Assembly (NCBI GenBank): GCA_041665985.1
Contig: JBAYHV010000001.1
Location: 1-59,966, forward strand
Source of the DNA: Minisyncoccota bacterium
GTDB taxonomy: Bacteria > Patescibacteriota > Minisyncoccia > Phycocordibacterales > CAIRYW01
Length of the DNA stretch: 59,966 nucleotides
Direction of reading: 5' to 3'
A program made the position numbers and the translations under genes. This document shows positions 1,194-47,388 of the stretch, piece after piece; positions within the stretch are counted from its first letter, which is position 1, and each line of letters begins with the position of its first letter. The notes below the pieces were generated by a model that made no database searches, was not told the origin of the DNA, and saw nothing but the letters and a program-made list of their open reading frames with translations.

Positions 1194-2225
1194 ATGACAA
1201 CACACGAAACACTCTATCGAAAATATCGACCACAAAAATTTAGCGAAGTGATCAATCAAGATGATGTTGTTTCGTTGCTTACAAATTCAATTTCTGAGGA
1301 AAGAATTTCTCATGCATATATTTTTGCAGGATCTCGCGGAACTGGAAAAACTTCTGTTGCAAGAATCTTAGCTAGGGAATTAGGAACAACTGATGATGAC
1401 CTATATGAAATTGATGCTGCTTCAAACAGAGGAATTGATGACATAAGAGCCCTAAGAGAAACAATTGAGACCCTTCCTTTTTCATCACCAAAAAAAGTTT
1501 ATTTAATTGATGAGGCTCACATGCTTACTCGTGAAGCTTGGAACGCCCTTTTGAAAACTTTAGAAGAACCTCCAAAGCATGTTATTTTTATTTTAGCGAC
1601 AACTGAGTTGGAAAAAATTCCAGAAACAATTCAATCACGTTGTCAGGTCTGTGAATTCAAAAAACCAACAAGAGCAATTCTTTCAAAAGTAATTAGTAAA
1701 ATTGCAAAAAAAGAAGGATTTGAAATTGAAGAGGAATCCTCCGATCTTATTTCACTTATGGCAAATGGTTCTTTTAGAGATGCAATAGGAGGACTTCAAA
1801 AAACGATCAGTTCAGTAACAAACAAAATAATTAAGCTCATTGATACAGAAAAATCTTTAGGTGCTCCAAAAGAAGCCTTGATCGAAAAATTTATTGTTTC
1901 AGTAGGAAAGAAGGAAACGGATAATGCACTTAAAGCACTTCACGAAGCAAAAGATAATGATATGAATATGGAACTTTTTGGAAAACTTACACTCGAAAAA
2001 ATTCGAGACATAGTTTTAATAAAATTTTCACCAACCCATGAGCAAAATCTAACTCACCGTTACTCAGAGGAAAGAATTAAATTTATAAAAGAATGTGCTG
2101 GTTCAAAAGAAATGCAGTGGAATGGGGAAGTTCTCAGAAAACTTCTTTTGTCAGTGATGGAATCTGAAAGATCCTTTATTCCTGAACTTTCTCTAGAATT
2201 GTTTGCTATTGGACTTTCTAGCTAA
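1194..2225 (+). CDS. dnaX: DNA polymerase III gamma/tau subunit (short form)
   Basis: YRPQKFSEV..., Walker A GSRGTGKTS, DEAHML Walker B, SRCQ sensor motif. Typical clamp-loader N-terminal AAA+ module. Confidence 0.9.
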   Translation: MTTHETLYRKYRPQKFSEVINQDDVVSLLTNSISEERISHAYIFAGSRGTGKTSVARILARELGTTDDDLYEIDAASNRGIDDIRALRETIETLPFSSPKKVYLIDEAHMLTREAWNALLKTLEEPPKHVIFILATTELEKIPETIQSRCQVCEFKKPTRAILSKVISKIAKKEGFEIEEESSDLISLMANGSFRDAIGGLQKTISSVTNKIIKLIDTEKSLGAPKEALIEKFIVSVGKKETDNALKALHEAKDNDMNMELFGKLTLEKIRDIVLIKFSPTHEQNLTHRYSEERIKFIKECAGSKEMQWNGEVLRKLLLSVMESERSFIPELSLELFAIGLSS

Positions 2226-2341
2226 AATTTTGATTTTTTTGCAAAAAAAAGCTAAAGTATTGAGGCTTTAGTTTTGGTTTTTGTTCGTATGTTTTAAGTG
2301 CCCTTTACTTTATGAACTTTTTACTTTAAACTAATTTACAT

Positions 2342-2412
2342 TACGGGATCGTCTAATGGTAGGACGACGGCTTTTGGAGCCGTCTATCTAGGTTCGAGTC
2401 CTAGTCCCGTAG
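2342..2412 (+). tRNA. tRNA-Gln (anticodon UUG)
   Basis: Hand-folded cloverleaf. Acceptor tacggga/tcccgta (U1-A72), D stem gtct/ggac, anticodon stem acggc/gccgt with loop ttTTGga, T arm ctagg-ttcgagt-cctag. No encoded CCA. Confidence 0.92.
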
Positions 2413-2524
2413 CAAATGAGTGTAGCGAATTTGCTACGGGAAGTGAGTGATGTTATCACTCACGTCTAGGACTCGAAGAGGTTGAGTTTATCGCACGGAG
2501 CAAAGCGAGTACGATACGAAACCT

Positions 2525-2562
2525 GTACCGTCCATGTAATGGAAGAGACTCCTAGTCCCGTA
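2525..2562 (+). repeat. 38-nt perfect direct repeat, copy 1 (gtaccgtccatgtaatggaagagactcctagtcccgta)
   Basis: Identical to 2828-2865. It ends with the last 13 nt of tRNA-Gln. Confidence 0.9.
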
Positions 2563-2827
2563 GCAAAAGAAAGTGCTAGGTAGCACTTTCGACTAGGACG
2601 AGAACAGCGGAGCTATAATTTTTCGGAAGAAAAATTAGCGAGCTGGTGCCTAGACTAAAATTTGCGATAGGCAAATTTTAAGTCGAAGGAGAGATTCCTA
2701 GTCCCGTAGCAAAAATTTACCGTAGGAAAATTTTTCTACGGGAAGAAAGCCCTGGGAGAGCTTTCGCCTAAGGCTCGAAAACCTTTTGAGTCTAAAATTG
2801 ATTTTAAGAAAATTTTAGCCAAAAGGT

Positions 2828-2865
2828 GTACCGTCCATGTAATGGAAGAGACTCCTAGTCCCGTA
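2828..2865 (+). repeat. 38-nt perfect direct repeat, copy 2
   Basis: Identical to 2525-2562. Confidence 0.9.
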
Positions 2866-3054
2866 ATTTATTACAAATAAATTTTTAAACTATTTACTTA
2901 AAATTAAATAATAGTAGTATTGAAAACAGCTTTTCGGCTCAACTTGCGGGTTAAAAACCCAAAGAACGAGGTGTCGACGCCACGCCTACAATGTTCATAC
3001 GAACAAGAGAGTTGACGGTGTAGTTATTTAAACAATAGATCGAAAATTTCTGAT

Positions 3055-3087
3055 AACGTTAACTAAAAAAAAGTTAACGTATTTTTT
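3055..3087. terminator. Hairpin aacgttaac/gttaacgt with an A/T-run loop and flank; possible bidirectional terminator
   Basis: Stem at 3055-3063 / 3073-3080, then atttttt. It lies at the 3' end of the minus-strand ORF 3093-3614. Confidence 0.4.
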
Positions 3088-3092
3088 AAAAT

Positions 3093-3614
3093 CTATTTAA
3101 GGATAAAACCTTTTTCATCCACAGCAACAATGTAATCATCCGAATAGTTTTTATCTACATCCACGCTATCATCGCTAAAAGATTTTTCAACAAAATAGAT
3201 TTTTTGTCCTGGGATAATTTTGAATGATTGTGTTTGGTCGCTTTGTGTTTTAGAGGTCAGACTAATTTCTATTACATCATTATTTTCTGATTTAGTTACG
3301 ACAAAATTAAATCCAGCAAGTGCTTTTTTTGCACTTGCATTTGCTGTTGGGTAGATTAAGTACGCTTTGTCATAATCAGGTGATTCTGCAAAAAGTTGAT
3401 CAGTACTTTGCATTATCGAAGTACTTGTCGAAGTAGGTTTTGTTGATGTTGCTTGTGTAGGGATTGTTTCAATTTTATCACTTGCTATTTTGATATCTGG
3501 AGAATCGGGTAAACTTGAAATTGATGAACTTCCTTGGTATTTAAAAATTAAAAATGCTCCTCCGGAAATGATCAATATAAGCGCAAAAATAATTATTTTA
3601 TATCTTGGGTTCAT
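3093..3614 (-). CDS. Hypothetical membrane-anchored protein (N-terminal TM helix, Ser/Thr-rich linker, C-terminal globular domain)
   Basis: The 173-aa ORF has a hydrophobic N-terminus (IIIFALILIISGGAFLIF) followed by a TSTKPTSTSTS linker. No recognisable family. Confidence 0.65.
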   Translation of the reverse strand: MNPRYKIIIFALILIISGGAFLIFKYQGSSSISSLPDSPDIKIASDKIETIPTQATSTKPTSTSTSIMQSTDQLFAESPDYDKAYLIYPTANASAKKALAGFNFVVTKSENNDVIEISLTSKTQSDQTQSFKIIPGQKIYFVEKSFSDDSVDVDKNYSDDYIVAVDEKGFILK

Positions 3615-3723
3615 AAATTATTTGAATTAAATTGTAAAATCTTACAAATACAATTATACAACCTAAATACAATAATAGTTGCAAACAAAAATTCTGTTGC
3701 TATAATATTTCTACAATTAAATA

Positions 3724-3820
3724 CATATCAAGAGAGCGACGAGAGCCCTGGCTCAAAGACTCGCCAGCAACCCTAAAATTTTAGTAGGTGCTAAATCCAG
3801 CCCATTTGGGAATGATAACG
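3724..3820 (+). promoter_or_regulatory. SAM-I (S-box) riboswitch
   Basis: aTATCAAGAGAG...GAGAGcccTGGCtC..AAGA..GCAACC...GGTGCTAAATCCAGC...GAATGATA matches the S-box core motifs. P1 is tatca/tgata. It sits upstream of metK. Confidence 0.85.
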
Positions 3821-3837
3821 AATATTTTATATTTGAA

Positions 3838-3990: not shown

Positions 3991-4980
3991 ATGAAATGGA
4001 CAGCAGAATCAGTGACACCAAAGCACCCAGATAAGCTTTGTGATCGAATTAGTGACTCTATTTTAGATGCATGCCTTGCTCAAGATCCTTACTCTCGCGT
4101 TGCAATGGAATCTTTGGGTGGACATGGAATAGTTACAGTTACAGGCGAGCTTACAACAAATGCATATGTTGATATTCGCCAAATTGTTGAAAAGATCCTA
4201 GGAAAACCATATGGAGTTCAAATAAACGTTGTAAAACAATCAAATGAAATCGCTCAAGGAGTAAATATAGGAGGAGCAGGAGATCAAGGTGTTATGGTTG
4301 GATTTGCTACAAGAGAAACTCCAGAATTAATGCCAAAAGAAGTTATTTTAGCAAGAAGTCTTGGGAGATATATTTATGACAACTATGCATCTTTTGATGG
4401 TAAGACTCAGATCACTTGGGATTCTGATGATGATGCAATTGAAACAGTTGTAGCTTCTTTTCAAAATACAGTAAAAGCTGATCTAGAAAAATATATTAAC
4501 GAATGGCTAAAAGATAAAAAAGTAAAAACTGATCTTAAAATTCACGCAAATCCTGCAGGAGATTGGAGTATCGGAGGATTTGATGCTGATACAGGTCTAA
4601 CGGGAAGAAAAATTGTTGTAGATCAATACGGGCTTAGATGTCCTATTGGTGGAGGGGCATTCTCAGGAAAAGATTCAACAAAAGTTGACCGTTCTGGAGC
4701 ATATATTGCTCGAAAAGAGGCGGTTACAATTTTGAATTCATCAGCAGATTATAAAGAGGTAACTTTTTATCTAGGATACGCAATTGGTATTGCTGAACCA
4801 GTTTGGGCTAAAGCAATGATCGTACTCAATGATGGATCTAGGAAAGAAATAGACTACATTGACAAATTAAGCCTTTTTACACCGAACGCAATTATTGAAA
4901 CTCTAAAACTTAGAGAACCAAAATTTGCAAAAACTGCAGAATGGGGACATTTTGGAAATGATTTTGATTGGGATAAATAG
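3991..4980 (+). CDS. metK: S-adenosylmethionine synthetase (compact form)
   Basis: PDKLCDRISDSILDA, GAGDQGVMVGFA and GGGAFSGKD motifs of methionine adenosyltransferase. Preceded by the SAM riboswitch. Confidence 0.9.
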   Translation: MKWTAESVTPKHPDKLCDRISDSILDACLAQDPYSRVAMESLGGHGIVTVTGELTTNAYVDIRQIVEKILGKPYGVQINVVKQSNEIAQGVNIGGAGDQGVMVGFATRETPELMPKEVILARSLGRYIYDNYASFDGKTQITWDSDDDAIETVVASFQNTVKADLEKYINEWLKDKKVKTDLKIHANPAGDWSIGGFDADTGLTGRKIVVDQYGLRCPIGGGAFSGKDSTKVDRSGAYIARKEAVTILNSSADYKEVTFYLGYAIGIAEPVWAKAMIVLNDGSRKEIDYIDKLSLFTPNAIIETLKLREPKFAKTAEWGHFGNDFDWDK

Positions 4981-25403: not shown

Positions 25404-25976
25404 ATGATCGGATCGAAACAGAATTCTATTTATATCTTTATAGACGCTTCTAATGTTTGGAGCGTAATAAAATCTGTACGGAAATTTATTGAGTACAAAG
25501 ATTTAAAAAGTTATTTTATGAAGAAGTTTGACTCAAATAATGTTGAAGTGTTTTATTACGATGCTTATCCAAAGATCGGTACAAGAGAATATAATTTGGA
25601 TGCCAAACATAAATTTTTTACATATCTCAAAAAAGGACTTAGTTTTACTGTCAGAAAAAAAGAATTGAAAAGGATTTCGGTTGTAGATAAAAATGGAGAA
25701 TCCGTTATAGAAAAAGGAAATATGGATGTTGAGATAACTATCGATGCCATGCATTTTAAGGATAAATACAGCACAGCTGTGTTTTTTACAGGTGATTGTG
25801 ATTTTTTACCTTTAGTAAATTATTTAAAAAATGATAGCAAAAAAGTTTATATTTTTTCATCAAAGGACAGTATTTCTCATGAACTAAAAACTGGAGGAGA
25901 TGGATATTTTGATATAAGAGAAATTCCTGAATTATGGGGAAAAGGCCTAAATCATAGGGAAAGTAACATAAACTAA
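25404..25976 (+). CDS. NYN-domain (LabA/DUF88-like) putative RNase
   Basis: IFIDASN...GNMDVEITIDAM...FTGDCDFLPLV pattern of acidic residues. Confidence 0.75.
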   Translation: MIGSKQNSIYIFIDASNVWSVIKSVRKFIEYKDLKSYFMKKFDSNNVEVFYYDAYPKIGTREYNLDAKHKFFTYLKKGLSFTVRKKELKRISVVDKNGESVIEKGNMDVEITIDAMHFKDKYSTAVFFTGDCDFLPLVNYLKNDSKKVYIFSSKDSISHELKTGGDGYFDIREIPELWGKGLNHRESNIN

Positions 25977-26238: not shown

Positions 26239-26311
26239 GGGCCCATAGCTCATCTGGTAGAGCGCTTCATTTGCACTGAAGAGGTGAGCGGTTCGAGTCC
26301 GCTTGGGTCCA
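26239..26311 (+). tRNA. tRNA-Ala (anticodon UGC)
   Basis: Hand-folded. Acceptor gggccca/tgggtcc with G3:U70, D arm gctc..gagc, anticodon loop ttTGCac, T arm agcgg-ttcgagt-ccgct. Confidence 0.92.
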
Positions 26312-26323
26312 CAATAAAAACTA

Positions 26324-26349
26324 ATCGCCTTTTTATGGGCGATTTTTTT
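26324..26349 (+). terminator. tRNA-Ala terminator
   Basis: atcgcc/ggcgat stem followed by T7. Confidence 0.7.
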
Positions 26350-26352
26350 GTT

Positions 26353-26483
26353 GTGGACCCAAAGCGAGTAAAAGATTTTACTCGCGTGCGGACTCGAAGA
26401 CCTTTTGAGACTATTTTGTGAGTTTGCGAAACAAAATATCCAAAAGGTGTACTGAAACTGTAAGTTTCGAATGTCCGCTTGGT
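26353..26483 (+). repeat. Structured module built from an inverted then a direct copy of the tRNA-Ala 3' end (same architecture as at tRNA-Gln)
   Basis: In order: gtggacccaa (26353-62), hairpin 26364-85, gcggactcgaa (26388-98), accttttg...caaaaggt stem, GTAC, gaaac/gtttc hairpin, tgtccgcttggt. Confidence 0.75.
26449..26471 (+). repeat. 23-bp perfect direct repeat gtactgaaactgtaagtttcgaa, left copy
   Basis: Identical to 27694-27716. The flanks remain partly similar for about 12 more nt. Confidence 0.9.
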
Positions 26484-26535: not shown

Positions 26536-27546
26536 ATGATAAAAATAAAATTGCTTAGATCGGCACTTGTCGGTTTGCTATTTCTATTTCCAGTTTTTGC
26601 TTCAGCTGTACATGTAAATGGTTACTACAGAAGCAACGGTACATATGTTAATAGTTATGAACGTACAGCTCCCGACGGGAATCCATACAACAATTATAGC
26701 TATCCTGGAAATTATAATCCTAATACTGGAAATATAACTGGAGGTAATTCTCAAACTTATTTAAGTAATTACTATAATAACTCTTCAAGTGGAAGTAATT
26801 ATTCATCAGGATACAGTTACCCTACTATTCCAAGTTGTCCATTAAATTCATATGCAAGTGGATCATCATGTAAATGTAACTATGGTTATTCAGTAAGTGG
26901 CTCTAGCTGTGTTTCTGATGATTCCATATGCCAAGATCAACTAGGATACAGTTCCAGTTATGATTCATTGAGTGGTAATTGTAAGTGTAGTTACGGATAT
27001 GTAATTGGAACATCTGGAAAGTGTGTAAACGCCAATAGCTACTGTTCAGATAAATTAGGAATAATGTCACAATATAATAGTTCTTCAAAAAAATGTGAGT
27101 GTATGGCAGGATACAGTTTTGACGGCTCAAGTTGTACTTACCAAGCAACAGATTATTCATACACAACTGATAATAACTACTCCTCCAATAACTCAATTTC
27201 GTGCCCAATAAATTCTCATGTTAACCCAAGCGATTCAACAAAATGTATTTGTGATACGAATTATCAGAACAACATAACAAATAATGGATGTATTTTTAAA
27301 ATAACAAAAACCAACACAGAAATTTGCCAAGATAGTTATGGTCCTAATGCAGATTGGGCTGGCACTAAAATTAGCGATACGCAATTAAATTGTAGTTGCA
27401 AGACTGATTATGTTTGGAATAATTCAAAAACTGCCTGTATTTATTATATTCCTCCATCAGTAGTTGAATCTAATTATGTTTCAGCAGATACAACTATAAA
27501 CAATTTACCTCCAAAAGTGGAACCTAAAAAAAATAGAATCGACTAA
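26536..27546 (+). CDS. Secreted Cys-rich repeat protein (signal peptide; S/Y/N-rich region; five CxC-x2-[GN]Y...C modules)
   Basis: N-terminal signal-like LLFLFPVFASA. Repeats are SCKCNYGYSVSGSSC, NCKCSYGYVIGTSGKC, KCECMAGYSFDGSSC, KCICDTNYQ...GC and NCSCKTDYVW...AC. Confidence 0.7.
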   Translation: MIKIKLLRSALVGLLFLFPVFASAVHVNGYYRSNGTYVNSYERTAPDGNPYNNYSYPGNYNPNTGNITGGNSQTYLSNYYNNSSSGSNYSSGYSYPTIPSCPLNSYASGSSCKCNYGYSVSGSSCVSDDSICQDQLGYSSSYDSLSGNCKCSYGYVIGTSGKCVNANSYCSDKLGIMSQYNSSSKKCECMAGYSFDGSSCTYQATDYSYTTDNNYSSNNSISCPINSHVNPSDSTKCICDTNYQNNITNNGCIFKITKTNTEICQDSYGPNADWAGTKISDTQLNCSCKTDYVWNNSKTACIYYIPPSVVESNYVSADTTINNLPPKVEPKKNRID

Positions 27547-27693
27547 AGTAAAAATGAACAACGCACCAAGAATTATTAAAGAAAACTCAACAACAACCAA
27601 AGCAACAAGTACTTCGTCGATAAAGACTCAAACTAAAAGCAATTGGTGGAATACTTTTATAAGTTGGTTCGGGAAATAAGAAGTGCTCTTGTG

Positions 27694-27716
27694 GTACTGA
27701 AACTGTAAGTTTCGAA
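27694..27716 (+). repeat. 23-bp perfect direct repeat, right copy
   Basis: Identical to 26449-26471. The two copies bracket the Cys-rich protein gene. Confidence 0.9.
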
Positions 27717-27728
27717 CATCCACCTGTT

Positions 27729-28055
27729 CTACGAAAAAAATCTTCCTAAAATTGCTTTCCATCCTGAACTACGTCTTCTTCCACAGCACCACATAAACCC
27801 CCAATCTATTGTAGGTTTTCCACATTGAACACATTCAACAATTTTTTCTTCATCATCACTTGTTTCAAATTTAATTTGACAATCCTCGCATCTACGAAAA
27901 TAGATCTTTCCTAATCTTGGAGGTGATTTTATATAAACGCCTATATAAATCATTTTTCCTTTGCACTCTGGACAAAATTCTTTTTTTTCGTCAAACTCAC
28001 AACTTGTCTCACATGTAGGACAAATATACTCATATTTCCTTTCAGCTTGTTTCAT
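27729..28055 (-). CDS. Hypothetical multi-zinc-ribbon protein
   Basis: Four CxxC pairs (CPTC, CPEC, CEDC, CVQC) in 108 aa. Confidence 0.55.
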   Translation of the reverse strand: MKQAERKYEYICPTCETSCEFDEKKEFCPECKGKMIYIGVYIKSPPRLGKIYFRRCEDCQIKFETSDDEEKIVECVQCGKPTIDWGFMWCCGRRRSSGWKAILGRFFS

Positions 28056-28102
28056 TTGGTTATTATATCAAAGTCTAAACTTCTTGAATTTATAAAAACT
28101 GA

Positions 28103-28108
28103 TATAAT
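28103..28108 (+). promoter_or_regulatory. TATAAT hexamer 7 nt upstream of ATG 28116 (leaderless candidate)
   Basis: gaTATAATtaacccaATG. Confidence 0.3.
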
Positions 28109-28115
28109 TAACCCA

Positions 28116-29072
28116 ATGACCCGAGACTCGATCATTAAAGAAATAAGTACAAGACATAATGTAAGTACAATTTACGTGAAAGGTATCGTGGATTCTGTGC
28201 GCCCAGAATATTACCTAGAAGATTCAAAAAAAATAATTGATGAGAAACCGAAACCTTTTGTTAAATGGGTTGGAGGAAAAAGACAACTTTTAAAACAATT
28301 TCGTTCGATGAATCTTTATCCTCCTGAAAAATTTGATGTAAAAAAAGGGAGATACTTTGAGCCTTTTGTTGGTGGAGGAGCAGTTTTTTTTGACCTACTT
28401 CCAGAGAAAGGATTTCTTTCTGATTTAAACAAAGAACTTGTTACTACATATAATGCTATCAAAAATGATGTAGAAAAATTAATTATTTCTCTCAAGAAGC
28501 ACAAAATAAATAAAGAATATTTTTTAAAAATTCGTGCTCAAGATCCTAATAAGTTAAAAGATATAGATGTTGCTTCTCGTTTTATATACCTTAATAGAAC
28601 ATGTTTTAACGGTTTATATAGAGTAAATTCTAAAGGTGGTTTTAATGTTCCGTATGCAGGAAATAAAAATCCTCTTATTTGTGATGAGGATAATTTAAGA
28701 AAAGTTTCAAAAGCACTTCAGAGTATTGACATCAAACATCAAGATTACAAAAAAGTTCTCAAGAAAGCGAGAAAAGGAGATTTTATTTATTTTGATCCGC
28801 CTTATTACCCAATTAATAAAACATCATCCTTTACATCCTACACAACTGAGGGATTTTTGGATAAGGAACAAATAGAACTTCGTGATACTGTTATTGAATT
28901 GAACAAGAAAGGGTGTTTTGTAATGCTTTCTAATTCCGATACACCCTTTATAAATAAAATTTATTCTGGATTAAAAGGCATTTGTATCACAAAAGTTCAA
29001 GCCGGTCGCATGATTAACTCAAAAGCTTCAGGCAGAGGAAAAATTTCAGAGGTTCTGGTAACTAACTATTAA
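28116..29072 (+). CDS. Dam-family (D12 class) N6-adenine DNA methyltransferase
   Basis: KWVGGKRQLL, EPFVGGGAVFF, NRTCFNGLYRVN..G.FNVPY and FDPPY motifs. The start is uncertain: the track ORF begins at 28047, ATG 28116 is preferred. Confidence 0.85.
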   Translation: MTRDSIIKEISTRHNVSTIYVKGIVDSVRPEYYLEDSKKIIDEKPKPFVKWVGGKRQLLKQFRSMNLYPPEKFDVKKGRYFEPFVGGGAVFFDLLPEKGFLSDLNKELVTTYNAIKNDVEKLIISLKKHKINKEYFLKIRAQDPNKLKDIDVASRFIYLNRTCFNGLYRVNSKGGFNVPYAGNKNPLICDEDNLRKVSKALQSIDIKHQDYKKVLKKARKGDFIYFDPPYYPINKTSSFTSYTTEGFLDKEQIELRDTVIELNKKGCFVMLSNSDTPFINKIYSGLKGICITKVQAGRMINSKASGRGKISEVLVTNY

Positions 29073-29082
29073 TATAATATTT

Positions 29083-29844
29083 ATGGCAAATAACAATTCC
29101 TGGAAGAAAATTTTTGAAGACAATAAGATTTTGAAACATGATTTTTCTAAATCACCTTTTTATTTGTCTGCCGAAATGATTAAAAAATCAGTACAGGAAT
29201 TTACTAAGACTAGTGAAAAAGAAGTTCGTTGTCTGTGTAAAATGGATACAAGAGAAAGTCTTCCTGAAATAATGAGAAATAATAACTTAATTTTATTACC
29301 TGTAAAAAATAAATATTATGTAATTGTAAAAGGTGAAGGTTTTGTTGATATTCCTGAGATAGTAAGTCCAACTGAAATATACAATACTAAATTAGGTTTT
29401 GATTTAGAAACCTCTAAAATAGGTAATTCAGAGATGCAACATCTAGATTTCGCCTATGCATCAAGTTTAATAAGGACATTTATGGACGATCCTTCTTTAG
29501 TTCTTACAATAAGAGGGCGAAAATATACCCCTGAGTTCGATTTTAAAATTAATCAACAAAATATAAAAGTCAAAGGTGTTCAAACAGAGGTGGATGCTGG
29601 GTATGAAGGAAAAGATAAAGTTGTATTAATTGAAGCAAAAAATTCTAAAACAAAAAATACAATAATTCGGCAATTATATTATCCATTTAGACAATGGAGC
29701 GAACATACTAATAAGAATGTATATTTACTTTTTTTTGAAAAAAGAAAGAATGAATATCTTATTTGGCAGTATACATTTGAAAATAAAAATGATTATAATT
29801 CCATTAAATTGATTAAATCAAAAAAATATAAAATCAATAAATAA
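29083..29844 (+). CDS. Putative type II restriction endonuclease (PD-(D/E)XK-like)
   Basis: Sandwiched between two methyltransferases. VDAGYEG..VVLIEAKNS fits D...ExK. No family recognised by eye. Confidence 0.5.
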   Translation: MANNNSWKKIFEDNKILKHDFSKSPFYLSAEMIKKSVQEFTKTSEKEVRCLCKMDTRESLPEIMRNNNLILLPVKNKYYVIVKGEGFVDIPEIVSPTEIYNTKLGFDLETSKIGNSEMQHLDFAYASSLIRTFMDDPSLVLTIRGRKYTPEFDFKINQQNIKVKGVQTEVDAGYEGKDKVVLIEAKNSKTKNTIIRQLYYPFRQWSEHTNKNVYLLFFEKRKNEYLIWQYTFENKNDYNSIKLIKSKKYKINK

Positions 29845-29850
29845 AGTTTT

Positions 29851-30609
29851 ATGAAAAGTGAAATCGGAATAAAAAAATTACATCCTGACGAATTTGAACT
29901 AGAATGTACAACTGTCTGGGCTTTTCCTCGTCGTGGTAATTGGGCAACTCACGCATCAGACTGGAGAGGAAACTGGGCACCAGAAGTTGTTAGAAATTTA
30001 ATCCTAAGATATTCAAAAGAAAAAGATCATTTACTTGATTGTATGATTGGAGGAGGAACAACAGCAATTGAAGCAAAGATATTAAATAGGCATATTACCT
30101 GTATTGATGTAAATGAAAAAGCCCTAGAACGAACAAAGAAAGCTCTTGAATTTACGATTGATAATAAAGCAAAACAAAGAGTTGTTAAATGTGATGCTAG
30201 AAATATGAGTTTTATAAAAGATGGGGAAATAGATTTTGTTTTAACTCATCCTCCTTATGCGGATATTATAAAATATAGTGAAGGGAAAATTGAAGAAGAT
30301 TTGTCTGGTATACATGATATAAATGCTTTTATTGATGAAATAGAAAAAGTCGCAAAAGAATTGTTTAGAGTTTTAAAGAAAGGAAAATACTGTGCAATTC
30401 TGATGGGAGATACACGCAGAAATAAAATGTACCAACCTCTTGCTTTTAAGGTTATGGAAAAATTTTTGAAAGTCGGATTTGTTTTAAAAGAGGACATAAT
30501 AAAAAGACAATTTAATTGCAAGGCAACTGGTTTTTGGGTCACAAAATCAAAAGAATCAAATTTCTTGTTAATAATGCATGAGCACCTCTTTATCTTCCAA
30601 AAGATTTAA
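29851..30609 (+). CDS. SAM-dependent DNA methyltransferase, second MTase of the cluster
   Basis: LDCMIGGGTT (motif I) and LTHPPYADII ((D/N/S/H)PPY motif IV). Confidence 0.7.
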   Translation: MKSEIGIKKLHPDEFELECTTVWAFPRRGNWATHASDWRGNWAPEVVRNLILRYSKEKDHLLDCMIGGGTTAIEAKILNRHITCIDVNEKALERTKKALEFTIDNKAKQRVVKCDARNMSFIKDGEIDFVLTHPPYADIIKYSEGKIEEDLSGIHDINAFIDEIEKVAKELFRVLKKGKYCAILMGDTRRNKMYQPLAFKVMEKFLKVGFVLKEDIIKRQFNCKATGFWVTKSKESNFLLIMHEHLFIFQKI

Positions 30610-30639
30610 TTTAATAATTGATATATAATTATTAATGTA

Positions 30640-31536
30640 ATGACCCACTACGGAAAAAGATTTTTTAGTTTTTTAAACACCAACAAAGCAGGAATATTTT
30701 TCTGCGTTGTTTTTGTAATCGTTCTCGTCGGAATAAATATTGCAGGAAATGCACTTTATAATAATTTTTTTATACCAAATTACTTTGATCATCCTGTATC
30801 TGACAATTCATTTTCTGGTTCCGATTTATCTTCATCAGATTGCAATGTTACAGGAATAAATATTCACGGGGATATTGTGACCTACAACCCACGCGATGCT
30901 TTTAACGATCAAGGCAACCTAACACTTGATCAAACCTCCGCAGACTACGTCACAGAGGCTGTAGCAGATGCTCAAACCAAAGATAATATCAAAGCAATAG
31001 TTGTTGAAGTAGATTCAGGCGGAGGCTCTGGTATGGCAGGAGAAGAAATGATGCGAGCTTTCAAGGATTCTAAAAAACCCGTTATCGCTTTTATTAGAGA
31101 AGGTGGAATGTCCGCTGCATATTTGGCAGCTACTGGGGCTCAAACAATTTTTGCCTCAAAACTTTCAGATGTAGGAAGTATTGGAGTAACAATGTCTTAT
31201 CTCCAAGAAGCTGGAAAAAATCAAAAAGAAGGTCTTTCATATGTAGATCTAAGTTCAGGTAAATTTAAAGATTCTGGAAATCCAGCTCGGCTTTTAACTA
31301 AAGATGAAAAACAACTTTTCATGCGCGATATAAATATCAGCTACGAGTATTTTGTGAGTTTAGTGTCACAAAATCGTAACCTAAGTATTGAAAAAGTGAA
31401 GGCTCTAGCTGATGGTTCTAGCGTGATGGGTGAGCAAGCTTTAAAAGACGGTTTGGTGGATAAGATCGGCTTACTTCCTGATGTTGAGAACTACATCTCT
31501 GAAAAGATCGGCGAAAAAACAAAAATTTGCTGGTAG
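30640..31536 (+). CDS. sppA: Signal peptide peptidase SppA (S49 family, 36K type)
   Basis: N-terminal TM helix, then IKAIVVEVDSGGGS and GGMSAAYLAATGA. Confidence 0.85.
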   Translation: MTHYGKRFFSFLNTNKAGIFFCVVFVIVLVGINIAGNALYNNFFIPNYFDHPVSDNSFSGSDLSSSDCNVTGINIHGDIVTYNPRDAFNDQGNLTLDQTSADYVTEAVADAQTKDNIKAIVVEVDSGGGSGMAGEEMMRAFKDSKKPVIAFIREGGMSAAYLAATGAQTIFASKLSDVGSIGVTMSYLQEAGKNQKEGLSYVDLSSGKFKDSGNPARLLTKDEKQLFMRDINISYEYFVSLVSQNRNLSIEKVKALADGSSVMGEQALKDGLVDKIGLLPDVENYISEKIGEKTKICW

Positions 31537-31692
31537 GGAAGCAAAACTTGATTGAAAAAACGTAAATATGGTCGATTTTAACCATGTATTTACGTTTTTC
31601 ATTATAAATAAAATAAAATAGAATCCTTCTTGCCTTTTTATTAAATATTTATATACTGTGACAATTAAATTATAAGTAACAAATAAAAAAAT

Positions 31693-31824
31693 ATGTCAGA
31701 AGAAGTATATGATATTGCAAAGGAGAATGATTTAACTTTCGATGAGGCAATGGAAATTCAAGAATTGGTAGACGAAAAAGGAATGGAAGTAAGTGAAGCT
31801 TTTGAAATGTGGGAAGAAAGATAA
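31693..31824 (+). CDS. Candidate 43-aa acidic small protein (MSEEVYDIAKENDLTFDEAMEIQELVDEKGMEVSEAFEMWEER)
   Basis: ATG-to-TAA ORF found by eye, followed by a strong terminator. Below the 60-aa ORF-track cutoff. Confidence 0.35.
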   Translation: MSEEVYDIAKENDLTFDEAMEIQELVDEKGMEVSEAFEMWEER

Positions 31825-31849
31825 CATTTAAATAGTTCTTAAAATAAAA

Positions 31850-31881
31850 AACCTCGTCCGCCTAAACGGACGAGGTTTTTT
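31850..31881 (+). terminator. Rho-independent terminator
   Basis: aacctcgtccg/cggacgaggtt 11-bp stem plus a T-run. Confidence 0.75.
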
Positions 31882-32133
31882 ATTTGTCTAAATATACAAA
31901 ATCTTTGGTATAATTCACTTGTCTAAATCTTACAAACTAATCTCAAAAACAATGTCAAAAAAATCACAAAAAGCGAGCGATCTAAAAAGCGGAGGAAAAA
32001 ATCTTAAAGCAAAAAACGCTTCATTAAAATCAAAACCATTTTCTGTTGCTGATGTTTCAACATCAAGAAGAGGAAGATAAGGGTAAGTTGAAAGTTATAA
32101 AGTCCATGAGGTTTATAAAGTAATAATGAACAT

Positions 32134-33117
32134 ATGAAGAATAAATCGGAACAAAAAAATAACTTAGTAATATATCAAGCAAAAAACGGAGCTATTGAGC
32201 TACGTGGGGATTTTGAGCATGAGAATATTTGGGCAACACAGGCTCAAATTGCCCAATTATTTGACGTTACCCCTCAAAATATTACCTTGCATTTGAATAA
32301 TATATATAAGGATAAAGAACTCAATATGAAGGCAACTTGTAAGGAATCCTTACAAGTTCAAATCGAAGGAAAAAGAAGAATAGAAAGATCTGTTAAATTT
32401 TACAACGTAGATACAATTATTGCAGTCGGTTATAGAATTAATTCAGTAATGGGAACTAATTTCCGTATCTGGGCAACAAAAACTCTCAAAGAACATATTA
32501 CAAAAGGCTACACCGTAAATCGCAAACAAATTGCCAAAAATTACGAGGCCTTTATGAAGTCTGTTTCAGATATTCAAGCACTTTTACCTGAACATATTAC
32601 ACTTGATCCAAAAGCAGTTTTGGAACTGATCAAGGAATTTTCTAGTACCTGGATATCTCTTGATGCATACGATAAAGAATCTCTTACCGTTATTGGGACA
32701 ACAAAAAAATCAATCAGATTAACTGGACAGGAATTGGCAAATGCTATCCACAATCTCCGAGCAGAATTAATTAAAAATGATAAGGCAACAGATATTTTTG
32801 CCCAAGAAAGAAGAACTGGAAACATTGAAGGAATTGTTGGAAACGTGATGCAATCTTTTGGAGGAAAAGATGTTTATAGAACGATAGAAGAAAAAGCTGC
32901 GCACTTACTTTACTTCATGGTAAAAAATCACCCATTTGTAGACGGAAACAAACGCTCCGGTGCTTTTTCTTTTGTATGGTTTTTGAGAAAGGCCAAGGCT
33001 AAGAAAACTAGAAACATAAATCCTAGCGCTCTTACTGCACTTACACTTTTGATCGCAGAAAGTAATCCCGAGAAAAAAGACCAAATGATTGCATTGGTAA
33101 CACAGATGTTAAAATAA
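32134..33117 (+). CDS. RhuM-family N-terminal domain fused to a Fic/Doc (Doc-type) domain
   Basis: N-terminus: ...FDV..QNI..HL.NIY...EL...VKFYN.D.IIAVGYR.NS..G..FR.WAT. C-terminus: HPFVDGNKR (Doc motif). Confidence 0.8.
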   Translation: MKNKSEQKNNLVIYQAKNGAIELRGDFEHENIWATQAQIAQLFDVTPQNITLHLNNIYKDKELNMKATCKESLQVQIEGKRRIERSVKFYNVDTIIAVGYRINSVMGTNFRIWATKTLKEHITKGYTVNRKQIAKNYEAFMKSVSDIQALLPEHITLDPKAVLELIKEFSSTWISLDAYDKESLTVIGTTKKSIRLTGQELANAIHNLRAELIKNDKATDIFAQERRTGNIEGIVGNVMQSFGGKDVYRTIEEKAAHLLYFMVKNHPFVDGNKRSGAFSFVWFLRKAKAKKTRNINPSALTALTLLIAESNPEKKDQMIALVTQMLK

Positions 33118-33126
33118 ATAAAAAAA

Positions 33127-33972
33127 ATGGCATTCGATAAATATTCAGCAGTGTGGGTATCGCATTCTTCAATGGGAGATTTTTTGAAATGTCCGCGCGC
33201 TTATTATTTACATAATGTATATAAGGATCCAAAAACAAAAAGAAAAATAAGTATTATTAATCCTTCTCTTTCTCTTGGTTTGGCAGTACATACAACACTC
33301 GAAGCTCTAAAGAATATTCCTGTGGAAGAAAGGATGAAAAGAGACCTTTTAGCAGATTATGAAGAAGCTTGGAAAGCTGTTTCAGGAAAAATAGGAGGCT
33401 TCAAAAACGCCGAAGAAGAAGCCGAGTTTAAAGAACGAGGCAAAGCAATGATAGAGAGAGTTATAAAAAACCCAGGACCAATTACCGAAAAGACAGTTAG
33501 AATAAAAGAATCTAATAATGGTATGCCACCAAATTTTATTCTTTCTGACGAAGAAAATATTATTTTATGCGGTCTGATCGACTGGCTTGAATATATTGAG
33601 AAGGACGACAGTGTTCGTATTTTGGATTTTAAGACTGGTAAACACGACGAAACAGAAGATTCATTGCAACTTCCAATTTATCTTTTACTTTTGAATGCTC
33701 TACAAAAAAGAAAAGTAACAGGCGCTTCCTATTGGTATCTTGATAGAGATGATAAGCCTATTGATATGCCTTTGCCAACCATCAAGCAATCAGAAGAAAA
33801 AGTTCTTGCGGTTGCGAAACAAGTAAAAAATGCCCGTGAGAAAAAAATATTTCTTTGTCCAAAAGGCGAAGGAGGATGTTTTGCTTGTAAACCATTTGAA
33901 GCAATTTTAGAAGGGAAGGCAGAATATTTAGGTGTTGGAGGTTATGGTTGCGATATTTATTCCGCCAAGTGA
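33127..33972 (+). CDS. PD-(D/E)XK nuclease, RecB/Cas4-like with a putative Fe-S Cys cluster
   Basis: N-terminal KCPRAYY. GLIDW...ILDFKTGK (D..DxK) and QLPIYLLL (QxxxY). C-terminal CPKGEGGCFAC. Confidence 0.7.
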   Translation: MAFDKYSAVWVSHSSMGDFLKCPRAYYLHNVYKDPKTKRKISIINPSLSLGLAVHTTLEALKNIPVEERMKRDLLADYEEAWKAVSGKIGGFKNAEEEAEFKERGKAMIERVIKNPGPITEKTVRIKESNNGMPPNFILSDEENIILCGLIDWLEYIEKDDSVRILDFKTGKHDETEDSLQLPIYLLLLNALQKRKVTGASYWYLDRDDKPIDMPLPTIKQSEEKVLAVAKQVKNAREKKIFLCPKGEGGCFACKPFEAILEGKAEYLGVGGYGCDIYSAK

Positions 33973-45282: not shown

Positions 45283-45363
45283 TAGGTCGTGTTAAGAGGT
45301 CTTGTTTATGATATTATTATAGATATAGATTTTGAGACGAATGTAAAGTATTGAAAAAAATAG

Positions 45364-45460
45364 ATTCGTTATATTGGGGAAGTCTGGTGTAAATCCAGCA
45401 CAGTACCGCTACGGTAACCTTGAATTTTTTAAGGAAGTCCGAGTACCAATATAATGAGAA
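45364..45460 (+). promoter_or_regulatory. Cobalamin (B12) riboswitch
   Basis: GGGGAAgtcTGGTGtAAATCCAgCACAGtACCGCtACGGTAAcc...GGAAGTCCGAgtACC (B12-box-like). P1 is ttatattgg/ccaatataa. Confidence 0.8.
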
Positions 45461-45530
45461 AATTGTCTTGTCGATCCTCGAGTAAGGGATGGCGGAAACC
45501 TAAAAGTATTTAAAACTTTTGATATCCTAA

Positions 45531-45561: not shown

Positions 45562-47388
45562 ATGGAAACAAAATTTTCAACAACAGAATATGAATTTGAT
45601 TTGGAAAAATCAATAGAAGGCGAAATTAGGCCTGATAATTTTGAAATACCTAAACCTATAGAGCAAACAAATGAATTCACTCAAAGTACTGAAAGTAGTA
45701 CAAAATCTGGTTTACAGCTGGTTGTGGAAAAATATGCCATAAAAGAAGAAGATTGGAATATGACATGGAGCGGTGGAGGAGAAAGATTTGAAAAAGGAGA
45801 AATTTTTGATGAAAATGGTTCTATTACAGAAAAAATTTCGCAAGAAAACTCAGCTGATAACGCAATGTTAATAGCGCATTTTGAAATGGTGGATCATTTT
45901 AAAAGTAATTCCACTGAAGGATATGTATTGCCAGACTGGACTGTGAAATCAGAAACAGGAGAAATTCTTGAAGTAAATGTTACTGTCGCTTTTCTTGTGG
46001 ATGGTAGAATTTATTACGAAACATGGACGCATACGGCCGAACAAAAAGAATCAGAAGAGGATGAATTAATAAAAGAAGAGACAGATTCAGATGAGGTTTT
46101 AGCAGATCAAGAAATAGATTTAAATAATACAGAAGATCCTATTGTTGAGGATGAAATTGAATCAATCGAACCAGTGCTAGTTATTGCTACAGATAAAGAA
46201 ATTCAAGCTCAATCAGTAGCACAGGAAAAAACTGAAACTCTAGTCACAGAACAAATTCTTAGAAACACTGAGTCTCAAATTATAAATTCTGTTTCTGTTG
46301 AAAATACCCATATCAATGTGCAAGAAATAAACAATGTAGCACGGATTGAGATAATCATAGATGAGAATGAAAAAACAAATGATCCTATAGATAAAAATGA
46401 GACCATCGAACTAGTATCGGACATAAATTCACAGCCAGAGGTAGAAACAGAACTTGTTGTTACGGAACCAAAAATAGTTCCAGAGGATAAGCAAACCGAA
46501 GCAGCACCAATTAATAAAAAAGAAATTGTTGAAAGTGTTCACACTGAAACAGTGGTAAAAGAAACTGTTAAGGAAGTACAGACAAAAAAAGTAGAATCAA
46601 AAATTGCTGAAGAAAAAATATTGGACAAAGAGTTTGATGTAAAAGTAGTAGATGAAACAAAAGAAGTACACTTTGAAAGAAAAGAAACAGATAAAGAAAT
46701 TAAAGAAGTTTCCTCCGAAATTATTTCAGAGATCTTTTCATCAGAAAAAAGACCAACTGATGCAAGTTCTCAAAAAGAAGAAAAAGAGGCAGTTCAAATA
46801 AGAGAAGCTTCAAATAAAGAAATCAAAAAAGAAGAGAGACCTCAAACTGACAAAGCGATCGAATCGCCTTATGTTGAAGATATTAAAATAGTCCTAGAAG
46901 TAACTTCTTCTAAAATTGAGAGTGCAAATATAAAAACAGAAATTAATGAAAATCCTGCAATAAATGTCGATAAGAGTATAAAAAATGAAGTGGAAGCAAA
47001 AAAAGATATTTCAAATACTGAAAAGAAGGCATCCGAAACTAATTCATCTGAAATTGTAGAAACTTCGCCTAGAACAGTTGAAAATATCGATGAAAAAACT
47101 GTTTCTTCGATAGTTTTAGCTGAATCCAGAACACAAACAAATGAAGCCATAAGAATAAGAACAAATAGGGAGGAAGTTCAAAAAACTTCAAACCAAAACG
47201 AGTCATTCCTAAGAGCTCTTGGATTGCATAGATCGCAAAACCAAACAGAAAGGAGAGCAAGACCTTTTTATCAAACAAACACATCAAATCAACCTGCAAA
47301 TAAACAATCAAAAACTATTGTCGAAGAAAAAATAATTCCTTCAACCACAAATGCATTAAACGGTATTACTTTGAAAAGAGCTGCATAG
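45562..47388 (+). CDS. Uncharacterised 608-aa highly acidic protein (globular ~170-aa N-terminal domain, then a long E/K/T/V/I-rich low-complexity region)
   Basis: A 1.8-kb uninterrupted ORF in AT-rich DNA. No signal peptide or TM helix and no recognisable family. Lies directly downstream of the cobalamin riboswitch. Confidence 0.7.
   Translation: METKFSTTEYEFDLEKSIEGEIRPDNFEIPKPIEQTNEFTQSTESSTKSGLQLVVEKYAIKEEDWNMTWSGGGERFEKGEIFDENGSITEKISQENSADNAMLIAHFEMVDHFKSNSTEGYVLPDWTVKSETGEILEVNVTVAFLVDGRIYYETWTHTAEQKESEEDELIKEETDSDEVLADQEIDLNNTEDPIVEDEIESIEPVLVIATDKEIQAQSVAQEKTETLVTEQILRNTESQIINSVSVENTHINVQEINNVARIEIIIDENEKTNDPIDKNETIELVSDINSQPEVETELVVTEPKIVPEDKQTEAAPINKKEIVESVHTETVVKETVKEVQTKKVESKIAEEKILDKEFDVKVVDETKEVHFERKETDKEIKEVSSEIISEIFSSEKRPTDASSQKEEKEAVQIREASNKEIKKEERPQTDKAIESPYVEDIKIVLEVTSSKIESANIKTEINENPAINVDKSIKNEVEAKKDISNTEKKASETNSSEIVETSPRTVENIDEKTVSSIVLAESRTQTNEAIRIRTNREEVQKTSNQNESFLRALGLHRSQNQTERRARPFYQTNTSNQPANKQSKTIVEEKIIPSTTNALNGITLKRAA

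Follow-up and report, generated by a model that had tools for sequence, protein, structure and literature searches.

Tandem structured modules built around copies of the tRNA 3' half follow a tRNA-Gln gene and belong to a widespread non-coding family in CPR bacteria

What are the repeated units that follow a tRNA-Gln gene of a Minisyncoccota bacterium, and do they act as DNA or as RNA? The gene lies in a stretch of 59,966 nucleotides (contig JBAYHV010000001.1 of assembly GCA_041665985.1; this whole stretch is called the window hereafter), and behind it the 3' end of the tRNA recurs in direct and inverted orientation. tRNA genes are classic landing sites of mobile DNA, and the bacteria of the Candidate Phyla Radiation (CPR) form a huge, poorly understood branch with tiny genomes. 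A sequence-only reading, made without database searches, had described tandem structured units behind the tRNA-Gln, and all the elements that it described were present where it had placed them. The array consists of three members of a widespread, unannotated family of non-coding modules, about 100-150 bases in length, at the 3' ends of tRNA genes in CPR/Saccharibacteria-like bacteria. What that reading had missed is that the family is large (more than 100 loci in CPR), that it is not specific to tRNA-Gln, and that two core classes are mixed in the array in the order A-B-A.

Throughout, X denotes the 3' half of a tRNA from T54 to the discriminator (G73 in the window tRNA-Gln), often with a few trailer bases, and X' denotes its complement. 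The tRNA-Gln(UUG) gene at 2342-2412/2413 is followed by three units, each terminating in TCCTAGTCCCGTA. This sequence was found in four copies on the + strand, at 2399, 2550, 2696, and 2853 with spacings of 151, 146, and 157 nt, which confirmed the three further copies of the last 13 nt of the tRNA that had been noticed; 0.32 copies with up to two mismatches were expected by chance, and four copies were reached in none of 100 shuffles. Copies 1 to 3 of the tRNA tail reach approximately 19-25 nt, the trailer CAAA included. The perfect repeat between units 1 and 3, previously given as 2525-2562 and 2828-2865, runs one nucleotide further (2524-2562 = 2827-2865, 39 nt), and the wider repeat is 44 nt with 95% identity. 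In unit 1, the inverse copy takes in the genomic trailer CAAAT, as had been claimed: 2429-2441 is complementary to 2405-2417 at 13/13 positions, and 2466-2477 to 2393-2404 at 12/12. The 9-bp hairpin at 2443-2451/2455-2463 separates these two exact inverse copies at the T-stem/acceptor boundary, also as described. That every unit carries a reverse-complement T-arm and acceptor held for units 1 and 3 but not for unit 2 (2569-2714), which has a decayed T-arm only, no inverse acceptor, and a core unlike that of the other two. Similarly, the succession of GTAC, the TCCAT-GTA-ATGGA hairpin, and the next direct copy was seen in unit 1 (class A), whereas unit 2 has another core (class B). The segment 2702-2743, comprising the trailer of copy 3 and the start of unit 3, is again a hairpin with an inverse acceptor. 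The array features, all on the + strand, are as follows.

2342..2412, +: tRNA-Gln(UUG), CCA not encoded, trailer beginning with CAAAT (ARAGORN; Rfam tRNA, 62.2 bits).
2393..2417, +: segment X copy 1, comprising T-loop, T-stem 3' strand, acceptor 3' strand, G73, and trailer CAAAT (sequence; direct-repeat family).
2418..2441, +: loop GAGTGTAGCGA (2418-2428; GCGNAGC-like tip), then inverse acceptor and trailer ATTTGCTACGGGA (2429-2441; 13/13 complementarity).
2429..2568, +: unit 1, made of X' split by hairpin 1, class A core, and X (sequence; fold).
2443..2463, +: hairpin 1, a GTT loop on a 9-bp stem, placed precisely where T-stem and acceptor meet in the inverse copy (sequence; folds).
2466..2477, +: inverse T-loop and T-stem CTAGGACTCGAA, forming the 5' side of P1, the stem that closes unit 1 (12/12 complementarity).
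2478..2549, +: unit 1 class A core, with P2 2479-2524, GTAC 2525-2528, P3 TCCAT-GTA-ATGGA 2531-2543, and AGAGAC (model R1 match 2466-2555, 69.2 bits; covariation; fold).
2550..2568, +: segment X copy 2, TCCTAGTCCCGTAG and CAAAA, the 3' arm of unit 1 (repeat analysis).
2569..2604, +: start of unit 2, with hairpin GAAAGTGCT-AGGT-AGCACTTTC 2569-2590 and decayed inverse T-arm GACTAGGACGAGAA 2591-2604, no inverse acceptor (sequence; fold).
2605..2695, +: unit 2 class B core, CAGC-GGAG-hairpin-CGAG-CTG, GTG, CCTAGAC-hairpin-GTCGAAGG, AGAGAT (alignment A3; 13 homologues from other loci).
2696..2714, +: segment X copy 3, TCCTAGTCCCGTAG and CAAAA (repeat analysis).
2715..2779, +: start of unit 3, with a loop, inverse acceptor and trailer AAAATTTTTCTACGGGA 2727-2743, hairpin 1' 2745-2765, and decayed inverse T-arm GCCTAAGGCTCGAA 2766-2779 (17 nt at 88% complementarity; sequence; fold).
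2727..2865, +: unit 3, made of X' split by hairpin 1', class A core, and X (sequence; fold).
2780..2852, +: unit 3 class A core, with P2 2780-2827, GTAC 2828-2831, P3 2834-2846, and AGAGAC (model R1 match 2768-2858, 76.4 bits).
2853..2865, +: segment X copy 4, TCCTAGTCCCGTA, then A in place of G73, then an AT-rich flank (repeat analysis).

No open reading frame (ORF) of at least 40 aa was present in 2225-3093, in agreement with the claim that the array is devoid of ORFs. Relative to shuffles, the array region folded with z = -9.6 (+) and -12.6 (-), and single units formed an X':X closing stem round a three-way junction with z of -3.5 to -7.8, with RNA and DNA parameters alike. The same array was found, identical, on an independent ENA contig, which excludes a one-off misassembly for the array. 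Approximately 85 nt upstream of the tRNA-Gln, a promoter-like block TTGATTTTTTTGCAAAAAAAAGCTAAAGTAT (window 2222-2262) was noted, which is conserved in the two closest relatives, L004 and L005.

The cores of the modules are three-way junctions belonging to a few recurring conserved classes; units 1 and 3 of the window are of class A and unit 2 is of class B. A module is laid out as X', core, and second direct X, with X' in some cases interrupted by a hairpin where T-stem and acceptor meet, and the X':X stem recreates the duplex of the 3' half of the tRNA gene. A trailer hairpin (H0) lies between the tRNA and X'. Since the X of one module is the start of the next, the modules chain head to tail. 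Class A is composed of P2, GTAC, P3 with a GTA loop, and GAGAC, with no variation seen in GAA, in the TA of GTAC, or in the GTA loop. In a first alignment of 24 class A units from four tRNA species, compensatory double changes were observed in 12/12 predicted pairs. With 34 model hits (alignment A2), 93.8% of cells were paired versus 57% in shuffled alignments, and covariation was 0.71 versus 0.16, with at most 0.14 in slid controls. For class B (alignment A3; 14 units including window unit 2) the corresponding values were 94.2% versus 72.6% and 0.61 versus 0.19, with slid controls at most 0.12, and double changes were found in 12 of 16 pairs. Classes A and B share a conserved bulge of 1-2 nt in the 3' arm, GAG-A(Y)-TCC. 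All 26 strong hits of the class A model in 609 kb were located just 3' of a tRNA on the same strand, and the only off-site class A match in the window (27627-27721) was weak and corresponds to a decayed copy. The first automatic unit finder and the contiguous/split classifier were crude and were used only qualitatively. Rfam 15 at the gathering threshold gave only tRNA and known riboswitch families in the window and 19 other unit-bearing loci, and a permissive search (E up to 10) of 2200-3100 gave only chance microRNA matches on palindromes. A hammerhead or other ribozyme was rejected for class A: on inspection, two of its junctions show GAA and RUA, CUGANGA is missing, and no Rfam ribozyme was matched.

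The sole other tRNA of the window, tRNA-Ala(UGC), also has a unit, whose inverse and direct arms are Ala-specific; TCCGCTTGG is a direct copy of the tRNA-Ala T-stem and the start of its acceptor.

26239..26312, +: tRNA-Ala(UGC), sole other tRNA of the window (ARAGORN; Rfam).
26313..26482, +: tRNA-Ala unit, with terminator-like hairpin 26323-26344 and T-run, inverse acceptor GTGGACCCA 26353-26361, hairpin 1 26364-26385, inverse T-arm GCGGACTCGAA 26388-26398, class A core, and direct copy TCCGCTTGG 26474-26482 (R1 match 26387-26476, 84.1 bits; terminator scan; fold).
27627..27721, +: decayed class A unit keeping GGTACTGAAACTGTAAGTTTCGAA, no tRNA adjoining, 1.2 kb past the tRNA-Ala unit (weak R1 match, 22.8 bits, E = 0.0015; sequence).

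Metagenomes were scanned with the pattern TTCGAGTCCNNGNCCNNNAG, 40-70 nt, and GGACTCGAA, that is, a tRNA 3' half followed by an inverse T-arm, a pattern that favours tRNA-Gln. The scan retrieved 112 stretches, about one being expected by chance by our estimate, and ARAGORN called a tRNA-Gln in 104 of the 115 scanned extracts. Across 100 distinct loci, the 12-nt T-stem and acceptor segment occurred in 30 versions. A downstream direct copy with at most one mismatch in 12 to the locus's own tRNA was found in 59 of the 100 loci (10% when loci were cross-paired), a perfect inverse T-stem in 48 (cross-paired 17%), and a perfect inverse acceptor in 17 (cross-paired 1.4%); the direct copy X matches the host tRNA better than X' complements it. 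In minimum-free-energy (MFE) folds, 16.8 of 20 bases of the tRNA 3' half were on average paired to the inverse copy, with a mean dG of -50 kcal/mol. Units were also found at tRNA-Met (initiator and elongator), tRNA-Asp, and tRNA-Thr elsewhere, with arms that fit their own T-loops (TTCAATT, TTCGATT, and TTCAAGT), and approximately 7 of 12 non-Gln tRNAs in CPR loci bear a unit. The same core class occurs at five tRNA species. A Gln-specific function (GatCAB or GlnRS mimicry) was dropped after units were found at tRNA-Ala, Met, Asp, and Thr. A phage origin was also rejected, since none of 2.9 million viral contigs matched the Gln pattern; scanning viral contigs with a generic T-loop/inverse T-loop pattern gave no usable information, as that pattern is also matched by convergent tRNA pairs.

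The closest genome matches of the dnaX-like gene of the window are metagenome-assembled genomes of uncultured Saccharibacteria, and the units differ among relatives. At L004 (DnaX 91% identity), a class A unit and a class B remnant follow tRNA-Gln, and L005 (DnaX 89% identity) has no unit there. In 5147-6300 of L005, the tRNA-Gln with encoded CCA and a simple terminator are directly followed by a long ORF without units; the presence of this ORF in place of units indicates that the tRNA 3' flank is a variable hotspot. At the more distant L007 (DnaX 51% identity), one unit follows tRNA-Gln, its arms fit the T-stem of that locus, which reads CCAAG instead of CCTAG, and its core and that of window unit 2 are homologous, with hairpins that differ yet still pair. 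Uniqueness to the locus, lack of covariation, and lack of polymorphism had been named as grounds for abandoning the sequence-only reading; the units were found at other loci, covary, and vary between relatives. As a separate observation, two additional conserved motifs, one beginning with CCAACTYGTGMTAGG and extending to CTTAGYAAGGTCG and the other being CAGTCATGTGAGACNGACCGAG, were seen in many genomes after the final tRNA-Gln end, at L054, L097, L100, L116, L120, L124, and L125 (after the last tRNA-tail copy) and at L034, L048, L056, L088, L101, and L111; they possibly represent a further structured element.

That the tRNA-sense strand folds as a single strand was shown by the mismatch spectra and the folding energies. 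Of 67 units, 62 were more stable on the + strand than on the - strand, and the mean difference was 6.2 kcal/mol (p = 4e-12). Single mismatches, in helices set by Watson-Crick pairs only, comprised 15 G.T, 3 A.C, 29 purine-purine, 10 T.T, 0 C.C, and 0 C.T. As for the molecule, d(GCGNAGC) and GNA loops are well known as DNA mini-hairpins of exceptional stability. GNA triloops accounted for 29/64 on the + strand and 3/65 on the - strand, GCGNAGC occurred 44 times on + and 3 times on -, and among 78 tetraloops 9 were GNRA and none was UNCG. In the covarying helices, G.U was found in 12 of 353 cells (~3%), below the 22 other non-pairs. In approximately 43 of 100 loci, the window tRNA-Ala included, the unit is separated from the tRNA by a terminator-like hairpin, and no promoter-like site was seen in the region scanned around that tRNA-Ala. 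From the loops, the rarity of G.U, and the terminator-like hairpins, we lean towards a folded species at the DNA level over a transcript.

The modules are arrayed and turning over at the tRNA 3' ends of CPR bacteria. The first tail copy is followed by CAA in 51 of 100 loci, and CCA stands at the last copy only in 8-9 loci. At L120, the tRNA body is followed by a bare unit, a 125-aa ORF with a second unit, and then a perfect X that carries CCA and has a conserved flank of the native type; at L029/L089, L097, and L072 the second unit is 0.9-1.7 kb away with an ORF between. The cargo ORFs of L120 and L089 had no Pfam match. Arrays mix core classes. Two identical class A units of L075 (12606-12710 and 12776-12880) stand in tandem with a 170-nt period, which indicates a recent duplication, or possibly assembly collapse or expansion; the contig of L051, which is related to L075, ends within a repeat. 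Window units 3 and 1 correspond to the two units of L024 (79% and 62% identity) in reversed order, and the tRNA-Gln and tRNA-Asp cores of L126 are mutual nearest relatives (81% identity). The right boundary of the direct repeat varies from 0 to ~45 nt past the discriminator. A search for empty and filled alleles among the loci under study yielded internal duplications only.

On these grounds we tentatively favour the view that the units are non-coding insertion cassettes that accrete at tRNA 3' ends and would act in the form of folded single strands, as integron attC and CTX-phage attP do. Two of the three explanations offered by the sequence-only reading, accreting mini-elements and attC-like folds, are combined in this view, and the third, a trailer that sequesters the tRNA 3' half, is weighed as a rival below. 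A cassette would enter at the tRNA 3' half, or duplicate across it, to leave the direct X...X repeat, and cassettes would then accrete in tandem, at times with a small cargo gene. The folded tRNA-sense single strand would be the functional form, with a stem that mimics the tRNA-gene target, and the enzyme would be supplied in trans. This enzyme is hypothetical because none was found in the window ORFs and none recurs beside the loci. Several observations weigh against the cassette view. The sequence-only reading had proposed a search for a recombinase or HUH enzyme; Pfam searches of the window ORFs of at least 100 aa, the scope of all protein-domain results for the window given below, detected no recombinase, transposase, HUH nuclease, reverse transcriptase, or Nop domain. 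Clustering of neighbour ORFs at 115 loci revealed no recurrent recombinase, with not every ORF outside the window scanned. Excision or insertion polymorphism was not directly observed. X' fits its own T-arm even at tRNAs with differing T-loops, so that simple insertion would need later compensatory evolution or templating. Conserved unpaired junction bases (class A GAA/RUAC/GAGA; class B GGAG/CGAG) with variable-length covarying stems are typical of functional RNAs, and a split X' with hairpin 1 produces a tRNA-like topology of acceptor stem, one arm, and T-stem in about one quarter of the loci, including the window tRNA-Gln, which suits an RNA. Finally, the tRNA-Gln array has no internal terminator or promoter, and as no terminator separates the tRNA-Gln from the units, co-transcription would be possible.

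The recurrent neighbour families inspected were housekeeping genes except for small GIY-YIG ORFs, and the genes upstream were dnaX-like, pyrG, and ftsEX. The GIY-YIG ORFs (~90-146 aa) lie within ~1 kb of tRNA-Gln units in approximately 10 of 100 loci (L055, L057, L059/L080, L099, L106, L073, L069, L092, and L118), too few for them to be the mechanism; they are possibly free-standing homing endonucleases or cargo. In the window, a 173-aa ORF (3093-3614) and a 336-aa ORF (26536-27546) were rejected as the enzyme, being secreted/membrane-like and without enzyme domains.

The main rival to cassettes, possible although doubtful, is that the units are co-transcribed structured RNAs in which X' pairs either with the tRNA 3' half, so that the tRNA unfolds, or with the decoy X, closing P1, as a switch or processing cassette that gates tRNA folding or maturation. 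It is consistent with the position of the units immediately 3' of the tRNA on the same strand, with the strong covariation and conserved junction bases of both classes, with the tolerance of wobble and purine mismatches on the + strand, with the extensive pairing of the tRNA 3' half to the inverse copy in the MFE folds described above, with hairpin 1 taking the place of the D and anticodon arms, and with the lack of an internal terminator in the tRNA-Gln array. In a variant of it, tRNA-like ends would let RNase P and RNase Z free each unit as a stable RNA, given the potential fold that was predicted. However, the terminator-like hairpin ahead of the unit in ~43% of loci, which at the window tRNA-Ala has no promoter-like site after it, is at odds with co-transcription, and close relatives without units or with different ones would be odd for a tRNA-maturation device. 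X is better conserved than X', opposite to what a pairing-driven switch predicts; no more than 17 of 100 loci have an exact inverse acceptor; the loops differ in kind from those of typical bacterial RNAs; and near-perfect helices of at least 40 bp would presumably be substrates of RNase III. A minus-strand small RNA antisense to the tRNA trailer deserves scarcely any credence: the window folds well on both strands and the P1 arms could gain two G.U pairs on the - strand, but it was rejected on the greater stability of + in 62/67 units and on a mismatch spectrum (G.T far above A.C, no pyrimidine-pyrimidine mismatch but T.T) that fits + only, and the GNA and GCGNAGC loops are likewise specific to +.

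In a non-autonomous retroelement or base-pairing-guided element, which we consider improbable, a transcript or single-stranded copy would end in X, and a nicked tRNA gene would anneal to it and prime copying, with a variable-length duplication of X at whichever tRNA was hit. This would suit the target-perfect direct repeat with its right boundary 0 to ~45 nt past the discriminator, the occurrence of one core class at five tRNA species, the close cores at two different tRNAs of one genome, and the lack of an element-encoded protein; against it, the window yielded no reverse transcriptase and none recurred near the loci, the model alone leaves X' unexplained, and it is purely inferential. Another reading, unlikely in our estimation, is that the units are protein-less mobile modules that would locate tRNA genes by base-pairing through X' or, as a transcript or single-stranded copy, through the terminal X, and insert by target priming with duplication of the tail, the core being re-targetable to Gln, Ala, Met, Asp, and Thr. 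It is very improbable that the units are inert scars, namely decayed att sites or fragments of pseudo-tRNAs that remained after ordinary integrase-bearing islands had integrated and excised in series. Direct repeats of tRNA 3' ends are the classic signature of integration, and islands with restriction-modification genes or cargo ORFs adjoin some units, but the sequence between the repeats is conserved over more than 100 loci with compensatory changes, which largely refutes this explanation; furthermore, ordinary integration yields no inverse copies, and an integrase was not found. The statement of the sequence-only reading that the array is neither a CRISPR array, nor just a terminator, nor a plain decayed att scar was upheld.

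Under the favoured reading as insertion cassettes, integrons are one system to compare. As in integrons, the units stand in tandem, and each closes with a direct repeat that the primary site has too; each carries an imperfect inverted repeat, for which a fold on one particular strand is supported, round a variable structured centre, and occasional units come after a cargo gene; ORF-less cassettes exist as well. In contrast to attC, the arms are copies of the tRNA 3' half and not RYYYAAC/GTTRRRY, no intI/attI is nearby, the cores belong to conserved classes with conserved junction bases, and the platform is a tRNA gene. Indeed, 2413-2870 holds one GTTRRRY (inside P2) and no RYYYAAC, where 0.54 and 0.34 are expected, i.e. 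the chance level, and no Phage_integrase or other recombinase domain was detected in the window. A second comparison is with integrative mobile elements exploiting Xer (IMEX) of the CTX-phage type, in which a folded single-stranded attP mimics dif, the host XerCD integrates it, and tandem arrays arise. Both have two inverted partial target copies ~100 nt apart that form a forked hairpin recreating the target duplex, both lack a self-encoded recombinase, and both accrete in tandem at the target. The present target is the tRNA 3' half rather than dif, however, with no evident inverted pair of recombinase-binding arms, and the units are ~150 nt with no phage genome. Islands and cis-mobilizable elements (CIMEs) at tRNA genes share the hallmark of tRNA 3'-end direct repeats flanking inserted DNA, which was found here, with the last copy bearing CCA and the native flank in some loci, and they share serial accretion and the tRNA 3' flank as a variable hotspot. 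They differ in that no integrase, in the element or in a related autonomous element nearby, was found here (window Pfam; neighbour clustering at 115 loci) and that the inserts of ~130-200 bp have a conserved covarying structure, each with an inverse target copy.

Among RNAs, species 1 and 2 of phage T4 and mascRNA-type processing are instances of tRNA-linked stable RNAs with tRNA-like ends. Like the T4 RNAs, the units stand beside tRNAs on the same strand, and an acceptor-like stem, which may be open to cleavage by tRNA-processing enzymes, could form from their termini; in contrast, the stem of the units copies the neighbouring tRNA, and many units are without the acceptor part. Repetitive extragenic palindromes (REP), bacterial interspersed mosaic elements (BIME), and miniature inverted-repeat transposable elements (MITE) are similarly short, non-coding, hairpin-forming, strand-asymmetric, often located after genes, and sometimes in tandem, whereas the units are not dispersed (609 kb, all strong hits at tRNA 3' ends), have arms templated on the adjacent tRNA, and have three-way-junction cores. 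No Y1_Tnp or HUH domain of the IS200/IS605 or REP/RAYT kind was found in the window, and the units are flanked by direct repeats of 13-25 nt. For CRISPR, the period is 146-157 nt, only 13-25 nt are common to all units, and structured homologues lie between; no Cas domain was seen in the window except a weak Cas4-like PD-(D/E)XK match 30 kb away. TIGR-Tas, described as a tandem interspaced guide RNA array beside a Nop-domain Tas protein (PMC12045711), is set apart by its protein, as no Nop-domain match was found in the window ORFs, the array architectures not being compared in detail. Full-text literature searches retrieved no description of such elements. The family lacks features that define integrons, integrase islands, CRISPR, TIGR, and IS200/REP elements, matches no Rfam family, and is apparently undescribed.

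If the units act as DNA, they would constitute a new cassette-accretion platform in which a tRNA gene takes the role of attI and the site is a folded single strand; if they act as RNA, they would tie a structured RNA domain to the folding and processing of the adjacent tRNA in an unprecedented manner. Modules guided by base-pairing would, if real, make up a new class of mobile element in CPR bacteria, one guided by nucleic acid, and alternatively the units may represent the first cis-acting RNA switch gating the folding of a tRNA. In either case, DNA or RNA, several new covarying motifs are available for modelling, and the family accounts for "pseudo-tRNA fragments" and assembly breaks behind CPR tRNA genes.

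Further observations concern the surroundings in the window. Directly upstream of the tRNA-Ala lies a gene for a 190-aa NYN-domain (PIN-like ribonuclease) protein (25404-25976). The 336-aa ORF mentioned above appears to encode a Cys-rich secreted protein, is located between the tRNA-Ala unit and the decayed unit, and resembles a cargo gene bracketed by units; restriction-modification genes come next. Downstream of the tRNA-Ala, a variable island (28047-33972) includes a D12 Dam-like methylase, a DUF6996/DUF6997 protein, an N6_N4 methylase, a RhuM/Fic protein, and a putative PD-(D/E)XK (Cas4-like) nuclease, and no integrase was seen in it. Of the known riboswitch families, a SAM riboswitch (3722-3821) precedes metK (3991-4980), and an AdoCbl riboswitch (45352-45501), just after a B12-dependent ribonucleotide reductase, precedes a 608-aa ORF without a Pfam match (45562-47388).

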